The notes: generated by a model from the letters alone, not told the origin. A stretch of DNA of 64,000 nt from Chitinophagaceae bacterium (GCA_016719815.1 JADJYK010000007.1:54399-118398); one strand, 5' to 3'; shown: positions 10,986 to 18,853, counted from the stretch's first letter. A program made the numbers and translations.

Positions 10986-13394
10986 TTACTTCATCCTGAA
11001 CTCCAGAGGTATGTTCAACTTTAGCGAAAAATTCCGACCTGGATTAAAAACACCTGCTCTGTTCGTTAGCAGGTTTGTGGCAGTGTATTTTAACCTGCTC
11101 AGATGACTTTGCCATGCATTATCTGTAATGTTCAATACTGCAAAGTGAACACTAAACATTGTTTTCCTTTTACTATTTAATACATCAGCACCGAGTCCTG
11201 CATTCAGCAAGATATAAGCCGGCGTTGCCGTCTCAGTATCAAAGCCGGAGAAATAATTATTTTGCCTGAAAGTATTATCAGCAGTAAGTTTTAGATACAG
11301 TTGCTTAATTCTTTTTCCTGCTTTTTTAAAATCGCCCCGCAGTTCGCCAATCCACCTGGGGGCAGGGATCATCGGAAGATTATCACTGTCTGTGATGTTG
11401 CCATCAATTTTTTTGTCAAAGCTGCCACGAACAAAAGAAAAGCTGTTTTCAAAATGCAGCCAGTCTAGTGGATGAGGGTGAAAATCCAAAAAAATTTCCA
11501 GCCCATATAATTTAGCGCTGTTCTGGTTAAACTGAAAAGCAGTTATCGCTTCTCCATCTACATTCACCAGCGAGTCACCGCCAAAAGCAGATTCCAGTTT
11601 GCGATAGAAAATAAAATCGTTAATCCTGTTGTAAAAAGCTGAAATGGCAATATTCAGGTGATCGTAATTAATATCCATACCTCCATCAAACTGCAAACTT
11701 GTCTCTGATTTCAAATCAAGAGTACCATACTCATACCTGCTGGTTCCTTCATGTGTACCATTACTGGATAATTCGGCCAATGATGGTGCTCTGAAACCAC
11801 GGGCAATATTTGCCTTGAGAATCAAAGCATCAGCCGCTTCATAACTTATTCCAATGCTGCCGGAGAAGTTTGAAAAAGACTTTCTGAATGCAGAAAATTT
11901 AATATTCCCGCCTTCCTGAAATTCCTTTCCCTTAACAGCTCTGTTATCAAACCGGATACCACCGCTGAGTGTAGCTTTCTTAAAATAACGGTGCGTATAT
12001 ACAAATAGCCCAGCATCAAATAAGTTATACTCCGGAATCAGCGTTTCCTGGCCTTTATTCTTATTTGCCTGGGTCATTCCATTAACACCAATAGTAGTAT
12101 GCCATTCCTTTGTTTCAGGTAAATGCCACTGAAGATTATAATTAATCGTTCTCAAATCGAAAAACAATTCCTCTTCAGATGGATCTTCGGCATTACCAAA
12201 CTCTTTACGAATATTTGATTGATAACCCATATTCAGTTTCAGCCTGCTTTTCCGAATAACAAAGTTGTTGTCTGAAACAAGCTTTGTGTGCTGAACCCTC
12301 TGCTTTGGTGTAAATATTTTCCTTTCACTTAAATCTTCATCTGTTGCTATTCTTTCCAAAGGTGTACCGGCAAAAAGGATGAACTTACCGGTTGCATCTT
12401 CACGGTCGCCTTCTACCATTCCCAGTTTCTGGTTAAAACGGCTGAGTATTAAGTGTGAATAGCCCCAGCTTTTGTTAATTCCAACATAGCCTCCAAAATT
12501 TTTCTCATTGAACCTGGAGTTCAATACACGGCCATCATATTTATTCTTATAATCACCGGCTGACTTAAAAGTGCCATAAGCACTCCAGTTAAAACCATTC
12601 TCATTCCCAGCTATGCCTGCATTCGTTGCAAACATTCCGCCATTAGTTTGATAGCTTGTCAATAAGTTCCCTTTTATCAATCCCTGTGCCACCGGCACAT
12701 TTGTAATAAAGTTTACCACTCCGGCCAGCGCATCACTGCCGTACATTAAAGAGGCAGGGCCTTTCAGGATTTCCACTTTTGATACGCTTAACTCGTCTAT
12801 TTCAATTCCATGTTCATCGCCCCATTGTTGTCCTTCCTGGCGAACGCCATCGTTGACCGTTACAACCCTGTTGTATCCGAGTCCCCTGATTATTGGTTTA
12901 GAAACTGATTGTCCAGATGATATTTGTGATACACCCGGCACTTTGCTCAATGCATCAATGAGGTTAGCAGACGGTGATTGCAGCATTACGTTCTTCTTAA
13001 TCACAGAAAGCGGAACCGGATTTTTTTTCATATTCAAAGGCCCAGAAACACCCGTTACAATCACCTCCTGATTTTCAATGATAATATGAGAAAGAGAAAA
13101 GTCCTTTTTCAAACTGGCAGCTATTTCTATATGCTCCACCAGTGTACCGTAACCTGTGTATGAAATTTCAATAACATGGTGACCAGCCGATATACCCGTC
13201 AGCTTGTAATTACCCTGCTCGTCGGCCACAGCCATGTTCTTATCGTCGGTACAGTAAATAGTAGCTCCCGGCAGAGGCTCTCCCGTTTTACTATCCATAA
13301 TTATTCCATGGAGACTATACCCTTGCTGTCCCGTTACTATCAAAGGAAAAAGTATAAAAAAACAAAGAATTATTGATTTAACAATTTGTAACAT
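10986..13394 (-). CDS. TonB-dependent receptor with carboxypeptidase-regulatory-like N-domain, probably metal uptake
   Basis: Signal peptide after ATG at 13394, GEPLPGA N-domain, plug motif KPIIRGLGYNRV, EILKGPASLMYGSDALAGVVN, His motifs GDEHGIEID and NGTHEGT, C-terminal PGRNFSLKLNIP. Confidence 0.92.
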   Translation of the reverse strand: MLQIVKSIILCFFILFPLIVTGQQGYSLHGIIMDSKTGEPLPGATIYCTDDKNMAVADEQGNYKLTGISAGHHVIEISYTGYGTLVEHIEIAASLKKDFSLSHIIIENQEVIVTGVSGPLNMKKNPVPLSVIKKNVMLQSPSANLIDALSKVPGVSQISSGQSVSKPIIRGLGYNRVVTVNDGVRQEGQQWGDEHGIEIDELSVSKVEILKGPASLMYGSDALAGVVNFITNVPVAQGLIKGNLLTSYQTNGGMFATNAGIAGNENGFNWSAYGTFKSAGDYKNKYDGRVLNSRFNEKNFGGYVGINKSWGYSHLILSRFNQKLGMVEGDREDATGKFILFAGTPLERIATDEDLSERKIFTPKQRVQHTKLVSDNNFVIRKSRLKLNMGYQSNIRKEFGNAEDPSEEELFFDLRTINYNLQWHLPETKEWHTTIGVNGMTQANKNKGQETLIPEYNLFDAGLFVYTHRYFKKATLSGGIRFDNRAVKGKEFQEGGNIKFSAFRKSFSNFSGSIGISYEAADALILKANIARGFRAPSLAELSSNGTHEGTSRYEYGTLDLKSETSLQFDGGMDINYDHLNIAISAFYNRINDFIFYRKLESAFGGDSLVNVDGEAITAFQFNQNSAKLYGLEIFLDFHPHPLDWLHFENSFSFVRGSFDKKIDGNITDSDNLPMIPAPRWIGELRGDFKKAGKRIKQLYLKLTADNTFRQNNYFSGFDTETATPAYILLNAGLGADVLNSKRKTMFSVHFAVLNITDNAWQSHLSRLKYTATNLLTNRAGVFNPGRNFSLKLNIPLEFRMK

Positions 13395-13426
13395 CGTTGC
13401 AAATATAAATGCAACAATGTTACAAA
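13385..13426 (-). promoter_or_regulatory. -7 promoter box (TATATTTG, 13400-13407) flanked by two TGCAAC-N3-GTTGCA-like operator palindromes
   Basis: TGTAACatcGTTGCA (13387-13401) and TGCAACaatGTTACA (13410-13424). Together they form a 16/17 inverted repeat around an 8-nt spacer, and the first overlaps the start codon. Confidence 0.7.
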
Positions 13427-13591
13427 CAAAATTTTTCACTGGTGCAAACAATAAAAAATACTCACCGCACAGATACCAAAGCCGGCGCTTACGCAGTAAA
13501 TATCCCTGAAAAGCAGTCTTTCCATCATTATTAAACCAGGAAAGGTTTTGACTGTCTGAACATTAGTTTATATTAGCAAAACCCAACTGAA

Positions 13592-14173
13592 ATGTCTATG
13601 CTTCTAACAAGTCGTCTTCTCGTTTTTAGTTTCGCACTAACGATATTTTTTTCCTGCAGTAAAAATGATGAGCCTGCACCTGACCCTTGTAACGGGGTAA
13701 GCTATGATGTACAGTATTTTAAGACGGAGGCAGTTGGCAATTTGAACAACGGAAGTATCAGTATCAATTATCCGGTTGGTGACACCATTTCTTATCAATT
13801 GAACAGCGGCAGTTTTCAAACATCACCCAACTTTACCAATCTTTCTCCGGGCAATTATGTAGTTACCGTTAAAAATCAAAAAGGCTGTACCGATACTGCA
13901 CAAATATCTATTCTGAATTACGGACCAAAATATGCAGTAGTAAAACAATTGATTACCGGCTATTGCGGCCCCTGCCATTTAAACGGCGGTAACAGCGGAG
14001 GAAAAAATTTTGATACAGATGCCAGTATTATTTCCAGTTGGGACAGGATTAAAGCAAGGGCGGTTGATGGAACCCCATCCTTTATGCCGCAGGCCCCAAA
14101 CAGTCCCTTGTCGACTGTTGATAAACAAAAAATTACGGACTGGGTTAATGCAGGTCACCGGCAGAGTGATTGA
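13592..14173 (+). CDS. Lipoprotein with Ig/SprB-like domain and C-terminal monoheme c-type cytochrome domain
   Basis: Lipobox FFSC followed by SKNDE. NLSPGNYVVTVKNQKGC is a SprB-like beta pattern. CGPCH (CxxCH) at 13964-13978 with a distal MP as candidate Met ligand. Confidence 0.8.
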   Translation: MSMLLTSRLLVFSFALTIFFSCSKNDEPAPDPCNGVSYDVQYFKTEAVGNLNNGSISINYPVGDTISYQLNSGSFQTSPNFTNLSPGNYVVTVKNQKGCTDTAQISILNYGPKYAVVKQLITGYCGPCHLNGGNSGGKNFDTDASIISSWDRIKARAVDGTPSFMPQAPNSPLSTVDKQKITDWVNAGHRQSD

Positions 14174-14198
14174 GTATTTATGAGCAGAGAACACTTCT

Positions 14199-15794
14199 TT
14201 ATCTCACCTTCAGCATAGCCCTTACATGTTGTGCCACGCCATTTTGATAGCGGGCATAATATACACCTGTTGGCAGCGTTTCAGCATTAAATTCAATTAT
14301 GTAAGTTCCGGCAGTATGTTCTTTATCAACCAGGGTTTTTATTACTCTGCCCAGGGTATCCATAATTTGTATAAACACATGGCCACCTTCAGTTTTATAC
14401 TTGACAGTGGTTTTATTGGTAAACGGATTCTCGTAATTAGTAATCCATAAATCGCCAGATGAAGAAGGTGGCGGTGTAACACCTGAACAAACTCCTGCTT
14501 TTATCAGTGGCAAACTTTGCAGTTGCGCATTAATATTGGGAGGAAACAGCGATTCCACAATTGTTTTATCGAGGCAGAACCATTTTTCAAGTAACGTTGA
14601 ATAAATGCTTCTGAAATCATACTGCATCGGTACATTATCATTAACAGTTGGCGCAGCCGGTATTGTAGGGTTTACACCCAGCATACCAACGTCCACTGAC
14701 GATCCAAACAGGAACATAGGCGCAGCCGCACCATGGTCTGTACCCACACTTGAGTTTGATTTAATACGGCGGCCAAATTCACTGTATGTCATTCCTACTA
14801 CCCGGTTTTCGACATTCAAGAATTTCAAATCATCCTGAAAGGCTTTAATAGCATCAGAAACCCGTTGCAACAAAGTAGCATGTGTACCCGTTGTAGTATC
14901 GCTTGAATTTGCTTGCACTGAATGGTTATCAAAGCCGCCAAAACTTACCATATAAACTCTTGTCTTCAATCCGCCGGCAATCAGTCTTGCCACAATTTTT
15001 AAATGGTCGGCCAGCGAGTTACTTGCAGGATAAGTAACCTGTTGTGTCACGGAATTAGCAGCATTACGAATTACAGATGAGAATTTCTGAGTTTGCTGAT
15101 TTACCTGGCGAATGAATTTTAATTCTTTTCCAGCCGGTGTATTAGGCACCGGGTCGGTTGTGCCGTTTATTAAGTTATAGAAGTTAGTGGCACTCGTAAT
15201 ACTCATTCCCATATTTACAGATGGGCCCTGCGTAGTAAGTGTGGTAGTAGAACCTATCTGTATTGCCAGCGGGTCGGGCATGTCTGCGTTGGGATAACCA
15301 GTCGGGAAGTTAGGATATTCATAATTCAAGTATCGGCCTGCCCATCCGCTATATACTTCCTGGTTACTATTTGAGGCACTCATCCATATATCGGTTGCCC
15401 GGAAGTGAGAAAAATTGGGTTGCGGATAACCGACAGCCTGTATCAGCTTTGCCTTCCCTTCGGTAAACAATGTTTGCAGTCCTGTCATTGAAGGGTGCAA
15501 GCCTGTTCCCGATACTCCGGTAATCCCCAGAACCCTGTTTTCAGGAATGGCTATATTGGTTCTGGCATTATAATATTTCGAATAGTCTGCAATCGGTATA
15601 ACCATGTTCAATCCATCGTTACCACCAGACAACTGTACTATCACCAGCACATGGTCAGTTAAGGTGGTTCCCCGCATCAGTGCCTGTACCAGTGGCGAAC
15701 TGATGCTCATAGCTTTTACAGAGTACCCGCTTATCACTTCGGGCAGTATTACTGCCGCAGGAATTGCATTAAGTAAAAAATCTTTTCTGTTCAT
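14199..15794 (-). CDS. DUF1501-family protein with C-terminal T9SS type-A-like sorting domain
   Basis: MNRKDFL N-terminus, QLSGGNDGLN, SHF, GFDNH, SEFGRR, GTDHG motifs. The tail NYENPF...IMDTLGRVIKTL...LPTGVYYARY...LKVR resembles a T9SS CTD. Confidence 0.88.
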   Translation of the reverse strand: MNRKDFLLNAIPAAVILPEVISGYSVKAMSISSPLVQALMRGTTLTDHVLVIVQLSGGNDGLNMVIPIADYSKYYNARTNIAIPENRVLGITGVSGTGLHPSMTGLQTLFTEGKAKLIQAVGYPQPNFSHFRATDIWMSASNSNQEVYSGWAGRYLNYEYPNFPTGYPNADMPDPLAIQIGSTTTLTTQGPSVNMGMSITSATNFYNLINGTTDPVPNTPAGKELKFIRQVNQQTQKFSSVIRNAANSVTQQVTYPASNSLADHLKIVARLIAGGLKTRVYMVSFGGFDNHSVQANSSDTTTGTHATLLQRVSDAIKAFQDDLKFLNVENRVVGMTYSEFGRRIKSNSSVGTDHGAAAPMFLFGSSVDVGMLGVNPTIPAAPTVNDNVPMQYDFRSIYSTLLEKWFCLDKTIVESLFPPNINAQLQSLPLIKAGVCSGVTPPPSSSGDLWITNYENPFTNKTTVKYKTEGGHVFIQIMDTLGRVIKTLVDKEHTAGTYIIEFNAETLPTGVYYARYQNGVAQHVRAMLKVR

Positions 15795-15823
15795 ATTTCT
15801 CAATTAAAAATGATACAACGGTT

Positions 15824-17500
15824 TTAAGACAACTGGTATTCTGATAAATTAAAGAAGTACTGGAACAGCGATTTTAACCTGGTATTTACTGTATTGAAAT
15901 TGGGAGTAGTGGGATTAGATATGTAGGCAGACCATGCATTCGTCCAGTAATAATCCCATTGCTGCCCGGTGAGCAGTATCTGCGTTTTCATCTGTGCCTT
16001 CGATTGTACTGTCAAATCATTCCGGAAAAATATCCTTAGACACTCATCAATAAGATCATTTGGATTGGCCGGGTTAGTTAGTGTTTGTGCAAATGTCACA
16101 CAATTGAACTGTACCCTGAATCCATTGCGGCTGTATCCGCTGTTAATCATCGTATCGGTAAACTGGTTACGCTTTGGTAGCGAATCGGAGTTTATCCATA
16201 TTTCATGAAACGACGGCTCCTGGTAATAAGCAGGCATTCCGGATACGTTTGGCGGGTCATGCAGATTTTGACCCATATTCACCATCCATGAGTAGAATGT
16301 ATTCCACAAACCATAATTTGTATCATATTCAGCCTCGGGCCTGAACTGTATGTTCATCTCCCTGAGCGAACCAATAACATGATCAGCAGGCGTTTTGATA
16401 TAACATCCCCGGTTAAGTACATCATAAAAATGTTCGCTTTTGAACAAAGCTGTAAGTACGGGTTTTATCTCATAATTATTTGCCCTGAAAATATCAGCAA
16501 GCGGTGCAATTACATTCAACTCCGTGGCCGCATCAATACTATAATACACAAACCAGCGATAGAATTTCCGTATGATAAACTTGGCCACTTCCTGTTGTGT
16601 AAAAATCATGTTGAGAAGATCAGCCAGCTCTAAGTCGCCGGCAGTAGCCCCTGTACGACCGGTAATTAATGTATTATTAAAGAAGGAAGAAAACTGCTTA
16701 TTTGTTGTAGTATGTCTGTTTATATTAAATACCGCTGTGTAAGTTGCACCGTCAATTTGCCAGCCTGTTAACACTTTTGCTGCTTCTTTTACATCATTTT
16801 CTGTGTACTGGGAATCGGTACCTTTACCGAGCGTAAACAGCTCCATCAGCTCCCTTGCATAGTTTTCGTCGGGAGCATTTTTGTTATTCAGGTATCCATT
16901 CAGATAGCGCAGCATTGATATATCCTTCGTTATATCCCTGATCAGGTTCTTAAAATTTCCCAATGCATACTGACGAATCAGCATATGCTGCTTATAAGCC
17001 CAGTTACCATAACCTACTTCTGCCGTTTCGTTGCCAAAATGATCGATCCAAAACATAATTAATTTCTCACGGATACTTCTGTCCTGATTTATCAGTATCC
17101 CTGTCCACCATTTTTTATAGGATGACCTGCGCTGTGATTGTACTGTACCATCGCTGTTAATATCATTAATCCATGTAGTGCCCTGGGTAATGTTCCCATC
17201 GGCATTTACACCCGGAGTGGTGGAGGTTGCATATTCTTTTACCGGCGGATTGGGATCTGGTGCTGTGGGTGTCAGCAGTTCATCTACCGCCTGGCTCATG
17301 GTTCTTGTTCTGAAATAATCAATGTCTGGCTTTTTAGCGCCAAACATGATTCGCTTCAGGAGATGCGTCACCTCTTGTTCAGTCCAGGCACCTGTATAAG
17401 TGGCAATGCCTGATGTAGTACGATATGGTTTACCGGAAATATTATCTTCGTTATCCGCTGGCTTTTTTTTCCGAGCAGTAAGAAATTCTCTTCTGTCCAT
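15824..17500 (-). CDS. DUF1800-family protein
   Basis: HLLKRIMFG, REKLIMFWIDHF, MLRYLNG, DENYARELMELFTLG, PPNVSGMPAY, YQLS end. Directly upstream of DUF1501, the usual pairing. Confidence 0.9.
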   Translation of the reverse strand: MDRREFLTARKKKPADNEDNISGKPYRTTSGIATYTGAWTEQEVTHLLKRIMFGAKKPDIDYFRTRTMSQAVDELLTPTAPDPNPPVKEYATSTTPGVNADGNITQGTTWINDINSDGTVQSQRRSSYKKWWTGILINQDRSIREKLIMFWIDHFGNETAEVGYGNWAYKQHMLIRQYALGNFKNLIRDITKDISMLRYLNGYLNNKNAPDENYARELMELFTLGKGTDSQYTENDVKEAAKVLTGWQIDGATYTAVFNINRHTTTNKQFSSFFNNTLITGRTGATAGDLELADLLNMIFTQQEVAKFIIRKFYRWFVYYSIDAATELNVIAPLADIFRANNYEIKPVLTALFKSEHFYDVLNRGCYIKTPADHVIGSLREMNIQFRPEAEYDTNYGLWNTFYSWMVNMGQNLHDPPNVSGMPAYYQEPSFHEIWINSDSLPKRNQFTDTMINSGYSRNGFRVQFNCVTFAQTLTNPANPNDLIDECLRIFFRNDLTVQSKAQMKTQILLTGQQWDYYWTNAWSAYISNPTTPNFNTVNTRLKSLFQYFFNLSEYQLS

Positions 17501-17626
17501 AAGCTGATTTTATTCCTGCAACATTGAAAAAGCTTGCAGGCAGGTTTTTGTCAATTTGCTATGACATTAAATATACTATTTCGTTTAAAGATTTTTAACA
17601 AAATTTAAGCCGGATGGGGGAAAATG

Positions 17627-17677: not shown

Positions 17678-18853
17678 TCAGAGATTTTCGATTATACCCG
17701 CTATCCCCTGACCTCCTCCGACACAGGCTGTTATCATGCCGTATTTCTTGTTCAGCCGTTTCAAATCATGCAGGTTTTGGATAGTTAGTTTGCAACCGGT
17801 GCAGCCCAATGGATGGCCAAGGGCGATGGCACCGCCGTTAATATTTACTTTCTCAGGGGCAAGTCCTGCTTCACGAATCACCGCTATGGATTGAGAAGCA
17901 AAAGCCTCATTCAGTTCAATCAAATCAATATCTGCAAGGTTAAGTCCTGTTTGTTTTAATACTTTTGGAATTGCAGCCACTGGGCCAATGCCCATAATGC
18001 GGGGATGAACAACCGCCACAGCACTGCTTACAAACCGGCCGATAGGCTTAAGCCCCAGTTCATTCATCATCTTTTCACCCATTACAATTACAAAAGCAGC
18101 GCCGTCAGATGTTTGTGAAGAGTTTCCTGCTGTAACCATACCGCCCTGTGCGAATGCTGGTTTCAGTTTCGACAATGCTTCTATTGAGGTATCAGCTCTT
18201 GGGCCTTCATCAGTATCAACAACATAATTTCTTTTTTGCTTTTTGCCTTTTACATCCAAATAAACTTCTTCCACGTTAATGGGAAGTATTCCGGGCTTAA
18301 AGTAACCATTTTGTATAGCCGCTATTGCTTTCTGATGAGAATGATAAGAAAACTCATCCTGTGCCTCACGGCTGATGTTATACTCTTTTGCGACTGCCTC
18401 TGCCGTAAGTCCCATTCCGAGGTAATAATCAGGATCGTCTTTTGCAATATTAAAGGAAGGAACTGTTTTCCAGCCGGCAGTTGGCACAAGGCTCATACTT
18501 TCCGTTCCGCCAGCAATGATACAATCGGCCATGCCTGTTCTTATTTTGGCAGTAGCTATAGCGATGGATTCTAACCCGCTGGCACAATACCTGTTGATGG
18601 TGATGCCCGGCACTTCAATACCCAGAGCTTTAGCAGAAATTAATCTGCCAAACTGCAGGCCCTGTTCGGCTTCGGGAACTGCGTTTCCCACAATCACATC
18701 ATCAACCTCACTTGCATTCAACTGTGGTACCGTTGCCATTAATCCTTTAATTACTTCTACGGCCAAATCATCAGGACGATAAAAGCGAAACCCTCCTCGT
18801 TTGGCTTTTGTGACTGCGGTTCTGAATCCGGCAATGATATAGGCGTCCTGCAT
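17678..18853 (-). CDS. fadA: Acetyl-CoA C-acyltransferase (3-ketoacyl-CoA thiolase)
   Basis: NRYCASG (catalytic Cys), [15 protein letters not shown] and CVGGGQG motifs. Confidence 0.93.

Follow-up and report, generated by a model that had tools for sequence, protein, structure and literature searches.

Two described arrangements come closest to the locus reported here. A predicted operon of DUF1800 (PF08811) and DUF1501 (PF07394) has been noted beside bacterial chitin synthases (PMC5122149), and Kamneva et al. (2012; PMC3542564) described modules of DUF1501 with PSCyt1, PSCyt2 and PSD1 in Planctomycetes, Verrucomicrobia and Lentisphaerae, for which they proposed a role in extracytoplasmic electron transfer. 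In full-text literature searches, we met no paper that assigns a function to either DUF1501 or DUF1800. Here, we describe a DUF1800-DUF1501 operon and an abutting gene for a cytochrome lipoprotein, at positions 13,592 to 17,500 of a 64,000-nt stretch (the window) from the metagenome-assembled genome (MAG) of a Chitinophagaceae bacterium (GCA_016719815.1 JADJYK010000007.1:54399-118398).

A preliminary description of the locus had proposed that the three proteins form one exported system, in which the separate cytochrome supplies the redox partner that elsewhere is fused to a neighbour of DUF1501. The precedent on which it drew, DUF1501 beside proteins with cytochrome motifs in Planctomycetes, is confirmed by the work of Kamneva et al. 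We favour a different reading, to which we give a probability of roughly 0.6: the locus would hold two separate units of one predicted envelope-stress regulon under an RpoE-like extracytoplasmic function (ECF) sigma factor, and the cytochrome would be a lineage-specific accessory and not a required subunit. The first unit would be the DUF1800-DUF1501 operon, an ancient and self-sufficient pairing. The second would be a single gene, encoding a lipoprotein with an immunoglobulin (Ig)-like stalk and a monohaem cytochrome c domain, that probably entered by one insertion event, in the common ancestor of a single Chitinophagaceae clade, at a site flanked by the DUF operon and a TonB/zinc-uptake island, and that would act as an accessory in the same stress response. 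Our results do not support an obligate three-part redox machine; co-regulation of the two units is plausible. The features on which the argument turns are as follows.

13592-14173, plus strand: open reading frame (ORF) of the cytochrome lipoprotein, 193 aa
14199-15803, minus strand: DUF1501 ORF, 534 aa as called; the start used by orthologs is M4, at 15794
15824-17500, minus strand: DUF1800 ORF, 558 aa, first gene of a two-gene operon
13531-13559, plus strand: predicted ECF-type promoter of the cytochrome gene (TTAAAC 13531-13536, 17-nt spacer, GTCTGA 13554-13559), ending 32 nt before the ATG
17561-17589, minus strand: predicted ECF-type promoter of the DUF1800-DUF1501 operon (TTTAAAC 17589-17583, 17-nt spacer, GTCAT 17565-17561), ending about 60 nt before the ATG

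The genes run in the order TonB-dependent receptor (minus), the 193-aa ORF (plus), DUF1501 (minus), DUF1800 (minus), a terminator (minus) and fadA (minus). The layout given in the preliminary description stands up well. DUF1800 and DUF1501 are in tandem with a gap of 20 bp, or 29 bp if measured to M4, which agrees with the 20-30 bp that it reported, and the ORF coordinates place the converging stop codons of DUF1501 and the CxxCH lipoprotein gene 25 bp apart. The three genes do not form a single operon here, since the cytochrome gene has a predicted promoter of its own and is read from the other strand.

Distribution of the gene pair and the cytochrome gene

We surveyed 80 loci across Bacteroidota at which DUF1501 carries a type IX secretion system (T9SS) sorting domain; for the synteny comparisons, only loci with at least 4 kb of flanking sequence were counted. 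In 76 of the 80 loci, the gene immediately upstream of DUF1501 is DUF1800, and the two genes are adjacent at all 25 loci of the clade and all 34 outgroup loci that have the required flank. The pairing that the preliminary description had pointed out is therefore real and conserved.

An ortholog of the cytochrome gene is present at nine of the 80 loci, all of them with a DUF1501 identity of 67% or more, and is absent from the other 71. Among those 71, an ORF with a cytochrome domain lies within 3 kb of the pair at only three; all three differ and none is adjacent. Isolates such as Longitalea luteola and Chitinophagaceae bacterium IBVUCB2 are among those that have the pair and no cytochrome. The ortholog is likewise absent from each of the 34 outgroup loci of the same family, and at 20 outgroup-genus loci, all of which keep the tandem pair, no ORF with a CxxCH motif was found within 8 kb. 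Across 150 genera of the family, full-length orthologs of the DUF1501-T9SS protein occur in about 40 and the cytochrome ortholog in only the eight closest. Within the genus, the ortholog is found in 28 of 36 genomes, abutting DUF1501 in 24, lying 1.5-2.5 kb off in two and elsewhere in two. Every cytochrome-linked copy in the DUF1501 tree falls in one clade with 100/100 support, which indicates a single gain. Because the pair stands alone across the phylum, we take the cytochrome to lie outside its core mechanism in Bacteroidota.

Adjacency of the cytochrome gene inside the clade has to be read against the conservation of the whole neighbourhood, a syntenic block that runs ABC, rhodanese, membrane protein, receptor, cytochrome, DUF1501, DUF1800, fadA, pyrD and terC. 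Cytochrome and DUF1501 are adjacent at 17 of 25 clade loci, DUF1800 and fadA at 18 of 22, and fadA and pyrD at 16 of 18. The first rate is no better than those of the housekeeping neighbours, so the adjacency carries no signal beyond inherited gene order. On this survey, a three-part system as originally proposed is not supported: the cytochrome is missing from most loci and was gained once, in one clade. The proposal had itself named rare adjacency in other genomes as grounds for abandoning it, and rare is largely what the adjacency proved to be.

Within the clade, the lipoprotein could nonetheless be a dedicated electron partner of a surface DUF1800/DUF1501 enzyme, the split counterpart of the fused cytochrome domains of Planctomycetes and Verrucomicrobia. 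We consider this unlikely, although several observations favour it. Three genomes run DUF1800, DUF1501, cytochrome and receptor co-directionally, with the cytochrome gene inside the DUF operon, and on the DUF1501 tree this arrangement arose twice independently; in genome G035, less than 10 bp separates the cytochrome gene from either neighbour, and in genome G183 the gap to DUF1501 is 32 bp. Nearly all clade members keep the gene, and modules of DUF1501 with cytochrome motifs have been published for bacteria of the Planctomycetes-Verrucomicrobia-Chlamydiae (PVC) group (PMC3542564). Against it stand the 71 loci and all outgroups that do without the gene, an adjacency no better than chance synteny, and three separations and one loss that left the pair intact: cytochrome and pair lie apart in G006, G013 and G078, and G021 has lost the cytochrome. 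The genome's second DUF1800-DUF1501 pair also has no cytochrome nearby, even though it has the same promoter.

A different neighbour recurs outside the clade. In 20 of the 34 outgroup loci, the 4 kb downstream of DUF1501 contain a co-directional gene for a TonB-dependent receptor; the receptors are of two unrelated types, with a gap of only 46-143 bp before the second. A tie to TonB-dependent uptake may be commoner for DUF1800/DUF1501 than one to cytochromes.

A promoter motif upstream of both units

Comparison of the upstream regions showed that the motif TTAAAC-N17-GTC(T/A)G is common to DUF1800 and the cytochrome gene. We built a position weight matrix (PWM) from 15 DUF1800 upstream sites only and scanned the genome with it (7.5 million positions); the promoter of the second DUF1800 pair ranked 3rd and the cytochrome site 8th. 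Upstream of that second pair, TTAAAC-N17-GTCTGA is present in 17 of 19 relatives. A closely similar signature, TTAAAC-N17-(T/G)TCTAA, precedes a conserved, single-copy operon for an RpoE-like ECF sigma factor and its anti-sigma factor in 23 of 30 loci, and a motif in front of the sigma factor's own operon is the mark of a self-regulated ECF sigma. The sigma gene, which was identified through a motif match beside its anti-sigma gene, encodes Sigma70_r2 and r4_2 domains and is followed by a gene for a single-pass membrane protein, the putative anti-sigma factor, for which Pfam gave no match. In silico, the two features expected of an RpoE-like regulon, a self-regulated sigma operon and a signature that recurs before its targets, are thus both present, and the common signature predicts that the cytochrome gene and the DUF1800 operon are co-expressed. 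One ECF sigma signature stands before the pair in both its copies and before the clade-specific cytochrome gene, which gives a concrete regulator, and a stress condition, to look for in cultured relatives. A shared promoter would also suit an electron partner of the DUF enzyme. The three co-directional cytochrome genes inside the DUF operon have no promoter of their own.

The motif likeness and the neighbourhood might both be coincidental, an unrelated cytochrome gene having landed in a variable junction; we judge this highly improbable. The junction between DUF1501 and the receptor is indeed an insertion hot spot, whose contents differ from genome to genome (two-component systems, Znu genes and others), and the motif is short, with as many chance matches genome-wide as were observed. 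Since there is no genome-wide surplus over shuffled sequence, the argument rests on where the sites lie and on their conservation. Both tell against coincidence. We compared upstream regions with those of seven neighbouring gene families (ABC, rhodanese, membrane protein, receptor, fadA, pyrD and terC), and the motif was found before the cytochrome orthologs in 11 of 18 genomes and in 12 of 35 DUF1800 regions, as against 0-1 for each neighbouring gene. We estimate that a site scoring at least 16.3 would arise by chance in a 140-nt region about 2 times in 10,000, and the cytochrome site matches the promoter of the second DUF1800 pair in -35 element, spacer length and -10 element.

The RpoE-like sigma gene of the window's own genome lies outside the window (C5:222287-222839, locus L140) and falls into two frames at a run of A; since orthologs have intact frames of 185-199 aa, an assembly error is the probable cause. 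The second DUF1800 gene (locus L001, 1274-2739) is likewise split into two frames. Other top intergenic matches to the motif in this genome, also outside the window, are at C1:192307, C12:89629 and C4:43517, and they are followed by genes for a 615-aa secreted protein with PKD repeats, a 310-aa lipoprotein and a 267-aa secreted protein without a Pfam match, respectively. We regard these genes as candidate further members of the ECF regulon. In several outgroup genera (eight loci), sigma54-like GG-N10-GC elements, TGGCAGCATTTTTGT and GGCGCAATATTTGC, take the place of the ECF-type motif before the DUF1800 operon, which suggests that the DUF1800 promoter may have switched between two sigma factors, both of them related to the envelope. 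The predicted 5' leader of the DUF1800 mRNA contains a 7-bp inverted repeat (CCTGCAA, 12 nt, TTGCAGG; 17515-17540, minus strand), a possible hairpin or operator.

Other candidates for the regulator were set aside. Paralogs of the cytochrome lipoprotein (275-680 aa, with at least two Ig-like repeats) occur at eight loci in conserved operons that run ECF sigma, anti-sigma with an outer membrane protein beta-barrel, cytochrome lipoprotein, a small second cytochrome or membrane protein, YceI and DUF5777. These operons have a promoter of their own (GGCAACC, 16-17 nt, CG(T/A)AT), which is not found before DUF1800, and their ECF sigma factor was accordingly rejected as its regulator. Six ECF sigma genes found by tblastn were rejected because none has the motif upstream.

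The genes flanking the two units are listed below.

10986-13394, minus strand: TonB-dependent receptor of haem/ZnuD-like type (ORF 10986-13451, likely true start M20)
17678-18853, minus strand: fadA thiolase gene
17658-17633, minus strand: intrinsic terminator of fadA, with an 11-bp stem, 5 GC pairs and a T run

The terminator sets the DUF1800 operon apart from fadA, as the preliminary description had said. The receptor gene is divergent from the cytochrome gene, and is downstream of and co-directional with DUF1501; its product scores 206 bits against the TonB-hemin profile and 96.9 bits against ZnuD, both under the cut-offs. In sister genomes, the receptor position is held by ZnuA and ZnuB genes.

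This setting raises the further possibility that the cytochrome serves the neighbouring TonB-dependent metal-uptake genes, for instance as a surface metal reductase or as a haem-related partner of the receptor, and merely abuts the DUF operon. We hold this to be very doubtful. It would account for the divergent arrangement, with the receptor in the window and with the ZnuA/ZnuB operon in sister genomes, and for the fact that in the separations seen in G006 and G013 the cytochrome stayed with the left block (ABC, rhodanese, receptor); the G078 cytochrome locus has the membrane-protein gene of the left block and no DUF pair, and in G035 and G026 the cytochrome gene lies 6-40 bp upstream of a receptor gene. 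Yet the cytochrome is kept where the receptor has been lost (G001 and G006), its promoter motif precedes the receptor gene in none of seven cases, and its paralogs sit in the ECF-sigma/YceI/DUF5777 operons and not beside receptors. A candidate palindromic operator is limited to the receptor promoter. It is a 17-nt inverted repeat (TTTGTAACATCGTTGCA / TGCAACAATGTTACAAA) at 13385-13426 that spans the promoter and start of the receptor gene and occurs once in the window. Because sister genomes hold ZnuA/ZnuB at the receptor position, a Zur- or Fur-type operator is plausible; an operator shared by receptor and DUF1800 was rejected, as the palindrome is found neither before DUF1800 nor elsewhere.

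Proteins encoded at the locus

When the PDB was searched by sequence and by profile for relatives of DUF1501, DUF1800 and the cytochrome, nothing of use came back except a weak match of the cytochrome to cytochrome c6, and the assignments below draw on domain profiles, predicted models and conserved residues. The DUF1501 protein has the following parts.

14199-15794, minus strand: DUF1501 protein, with a signal of the twin-arginine translocation (Tat) type, an alkaline-phosphatase-superfamily core and a T9SS type-A C-terminal domain (CTD)
15774-15788, minus strand: motif codons of the Tat-type signal, MNRKDFL
about 14664-15647, minus strand: alkaline-phosphatase-superfamily core
14202-14429, minus strand: T9SS type-A C-terminal sorting domain (Pfam, NCBIfam and Foldseek)

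DUF1501 matches PF07394 over residues 53-380 with 59 bits (cut-off 27). The AlphaFold model, made from an input of 38 sequences, has a predicted local distance difference test (pLDDT) score of 76.5, and Foldseek matches it to S1 sulfatases (7oz9, 6hr5), LtaS (2w5r), E. coli alkaline phosphatase (1alk) and YejM/PbgA (6vat) with E of about 1e-5 and probability 1.0. The core fold is shared with these structures although identity is only 8-12% and the TM-score about 0.3, and the protein differs from sulfatases in having no C/S-x-P-x-R motif. The likeness to the alkaline-phosphatase/sulfatase superfamily asserted in the preliminary description is borne out by these matches, and the motifs that it listed (GGND, GFDNH, SEFGR and TDHG) are all present: D60, S129-H130, D289/H291, E339 and D353-H354 are invariant among the 38 sequences. 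The conserved Asp, Ser and Asp-His fall at the usual strand ends and helix N-terminus, so that in the model they would occupy the metal-ligand and nucleophile positions of the superfamily. A metal site with a nucleophilic Ser would suit the invariant Asp, Ser and His, so the most likely chemistry of this putative metalloenzyme is hydrolysis or transfer of a phosphate or sulfate ester. Judged by these residues, the site is a predicted hydrolase or transferase site, not a redox centre; a fold and residues of the phospho- or sulfo-esterase type also tell against an electron partner for the enzyme.

The Tat signal suggests that DUF1501 is probably exported folded, and the T9SS sorting domain that it probably then reaches the cell surface. 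TatC is present in the genome. The sorting domain (PF18962/TIGR04183) scores 30 bits against a cut-off of 27 in Pfam and 25.9 against 23 in NCBIfam, the fold of the tail matches the T9SS CTD of mirolase (8qb1; TMt 0.71), and SprA is encoded in the genome, so that both the domain and the machinery expected of a type-A cargo are there. An RRxF motif followed by a hydrophobic region is present in about 32 of 39 family orthologs, which begin MKRRDFL and then run into a hydrophobic stretch, and in nearly all of the 80 phylum-wide DUF1501 homologs. A few proteins of the window's clade have exchanged RR for RK.

T9SS cargo is generally described as dependent on Sec, and a review of the T9SS makes no mention of cargo with a Tat signal. 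The retained 80 loci, by comparison, combine a Tat-type signal (M-K/N-R-R-x-F and a hydrophobic stretch) with a T9SS CTD on one protein, in Chitinophagales, Sphingobacteriales, Cytophagales, Flavobacteriales and MAGs labelled Ignavibacteria. The presence of both on the same DUF1501 protein across the phylum is an oddity of cell biology in its own right.

Its partner is of another kind.

15824-17500, minus strand: DUF1800 protein, 558 aa, all-alpha, with a conserved N-terminal MDRRxFL and no hydrophobic signal region

The Pfam match to DUF1800 is strong (310.7 bits against a cut-off of 26.1) and the model is confident (pLDDT 88.8; predicted TM-score, pTM, 0.87), yet a fold search of the PDB returned no match, the best E being 1.5. 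The protein is rich in invariant His and Glu, and three of 38 sequences give a weak PSD2 match. We found no signal peptide in about 110 DUF1800 sequences across the phylum; the preliminary description had counted DUF1800 as an exported third of the system, and for want of a signal peptide the export of all three proteins is not established. In many copies, the N-terminus reads M-D/N/K-R-R-x-F-L and passes directly into a charged linker, so the motif may be a vestigial or docking twin-arginine motif. This may fit hitchhiker export with DUF1501. DUF1800 might thus ride out bound to DUF1501, or it might mature DUF1501 in the cytoplasm. A confidently predicted fold with no solved relative, together with an orphan twin-arginine motif, makes DUF1800 an unusual protein.

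The features of the cytochrome lipoprotein that are invariant in 20 orthologs include the following.

13655-13657, plus strand: lipobox Cys22
13964-13978, plus strand: haem-attachment motif CGPCH
14084-14089, plus strand: Met165-Pro166 (Met165 codon 14084-14086)

The protein consists of a signal peptide, the lipobox, a beta domain of the Ig/SprB-like kind with Cys33 and Cys99 on either side and, at the C-terminus, a class-I monohaem cytochrome c domain. The Cys pair, the longer string GYCGPCH and a C-terminal DW.NAG are invariant in the same orthologs, and the CxxCH lipoprotein of the preliminary description is confirmed. Positions +2 to +5 after the lipobox, which we compared with the Lys-plus-acidic export signal of surface-exposed Bacteroidota lipoproteins, are mostly K/N-K-D/E and vary among orthologs. 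The gene is single-copy in its genome, which also has a CcsA-type haem-attachment gene. Both CxxCH and the distal Met expected of class I c-type cytochromes are present, although the score against Cytochrome_CBB3 falls under the Pfam cut-off of 27 (18.9 bits for the whole protein, 21.7 bits for the domain); a homologous paralog (E 5e-33) passes at 28.2 bits, and the domain aligns to cytochrome c6 across CxxCH and Met. By these sequence features, it is a real c-type haem domain. Its resemblance to class I monohaem cytochromes c such as cytochrome c6 (4eif) lies in CxxCH near the domain N-terminus, a later distal Met and a length of about 75 residues; it differs in being fused to a lipoprotein Ig/SprB-like stalk, in its sub-threshold Pfam score and in that its haem binding is predicted only.

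A Pfam scan gave no match of this domain to PSCyt1 at E up to 10, which speaks against a split counterpart of the planctomycete domains. On the other hand, predicted Tat export of DUF1501 alongside a DUF1800 that has many invariant His and Glu residues and no signal is what one might expect of a cofactor-bearing redox partner, which favours the idea. Carried further, the pair would be not a plain esterase but a Tat-exported, stress-induced extracytoplasmic redox metalloenzyme in which DUF1800 carries a cofactor out on the Tat signal of DUF1501. Each lineage would connect the enzyme to a small cytochrome of its own, Planctomycetes to PSCyt proteins and the present clade to a surface lipoprotein in the same ECF regulon, with the window copy acting at the cell surface after T9SS export. 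We think this broader scheme very unlikely.

The preferred reading and described systems

Several points weigh against our preferred reading of two co-regulated units with an accessory cytochrome. The cytochrome is kept in nearly all clade genomes and has entered the DUF operon twice, so that it might be more than an accessory inside its clade. When the genome was ranked with a PWM built from the sigma operon sites only, the cytochrome site came 28th and the second-pair site 76th, but the DUF1800 site of the window just 241st, because its -10 element (GTCATA) differs from the TTCTAA of the sigma gene. The motif is low in information, with a genome-wide match count equal to that in shuffled sequence, and the motif counts overstate independence because orthologous sites are phylogenetically related. 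The twin-arginine motif in the window's genome is RK (NRKDFL) in place of RR, and hitchhiker export of DUF1800 and hydrolase chemistry of DUF1501 are steps that we infer. Domains, folds, gene distribution and promoter motifs are what the analysis shows; the route of export, dependence on the sigma factor and any contact between the proteins belong with the inferred steps. DUF1800/DUF1501 is a widespread exported gene pair without a known function, and the question of what it does has been narrowed here, not solved.

The proposed regulon is one that we take to resemble the envelope-stress ECF regulons of the RpoE/AlgU type, such as that of E. coli sigmaE-RseA. The likeness lies in a self-regulated sigma/anti-sigma operon, in a signature of AAC, about 17-18 nt and TCTGA/TCTAA, and in exported envelope targets. 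It differs in that the anti-sigma factor has no Pfam match and that the top members are DUF1800-DUF1501 pairs, and it is a prediction from sequence only.

The two-gene units beside chitin synthases (PMC5122149) likewise have DUF1800 before DUF1501 in tandem and a twin-arginine-type signal on DUF1501. Here, DUF1501 adds a T9SS sorting domain, the operon an ECF-type promoter and, in one clade, an abutting cytochrome gene. The PVC modules (PMC3542564) are alike in that a DUF1501 protein with a Tat signal adjoins proteins with CxxCH motifs. They differ in that the partner of DUF1501 here is DUF1800 and not a PSCyt2/PSD1 protein, so that the locus is not a PSCyt module, and in that the cytochrome is a small separate lipoprotein, encoded on the opposite strand in one Chitinophagaceae clade only. 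What is new relative to both reports is the separate lipoprotein cytochrome, the link through a predicted ECF promoter and the Tat-plus-T9SS architecture of DUF1501.

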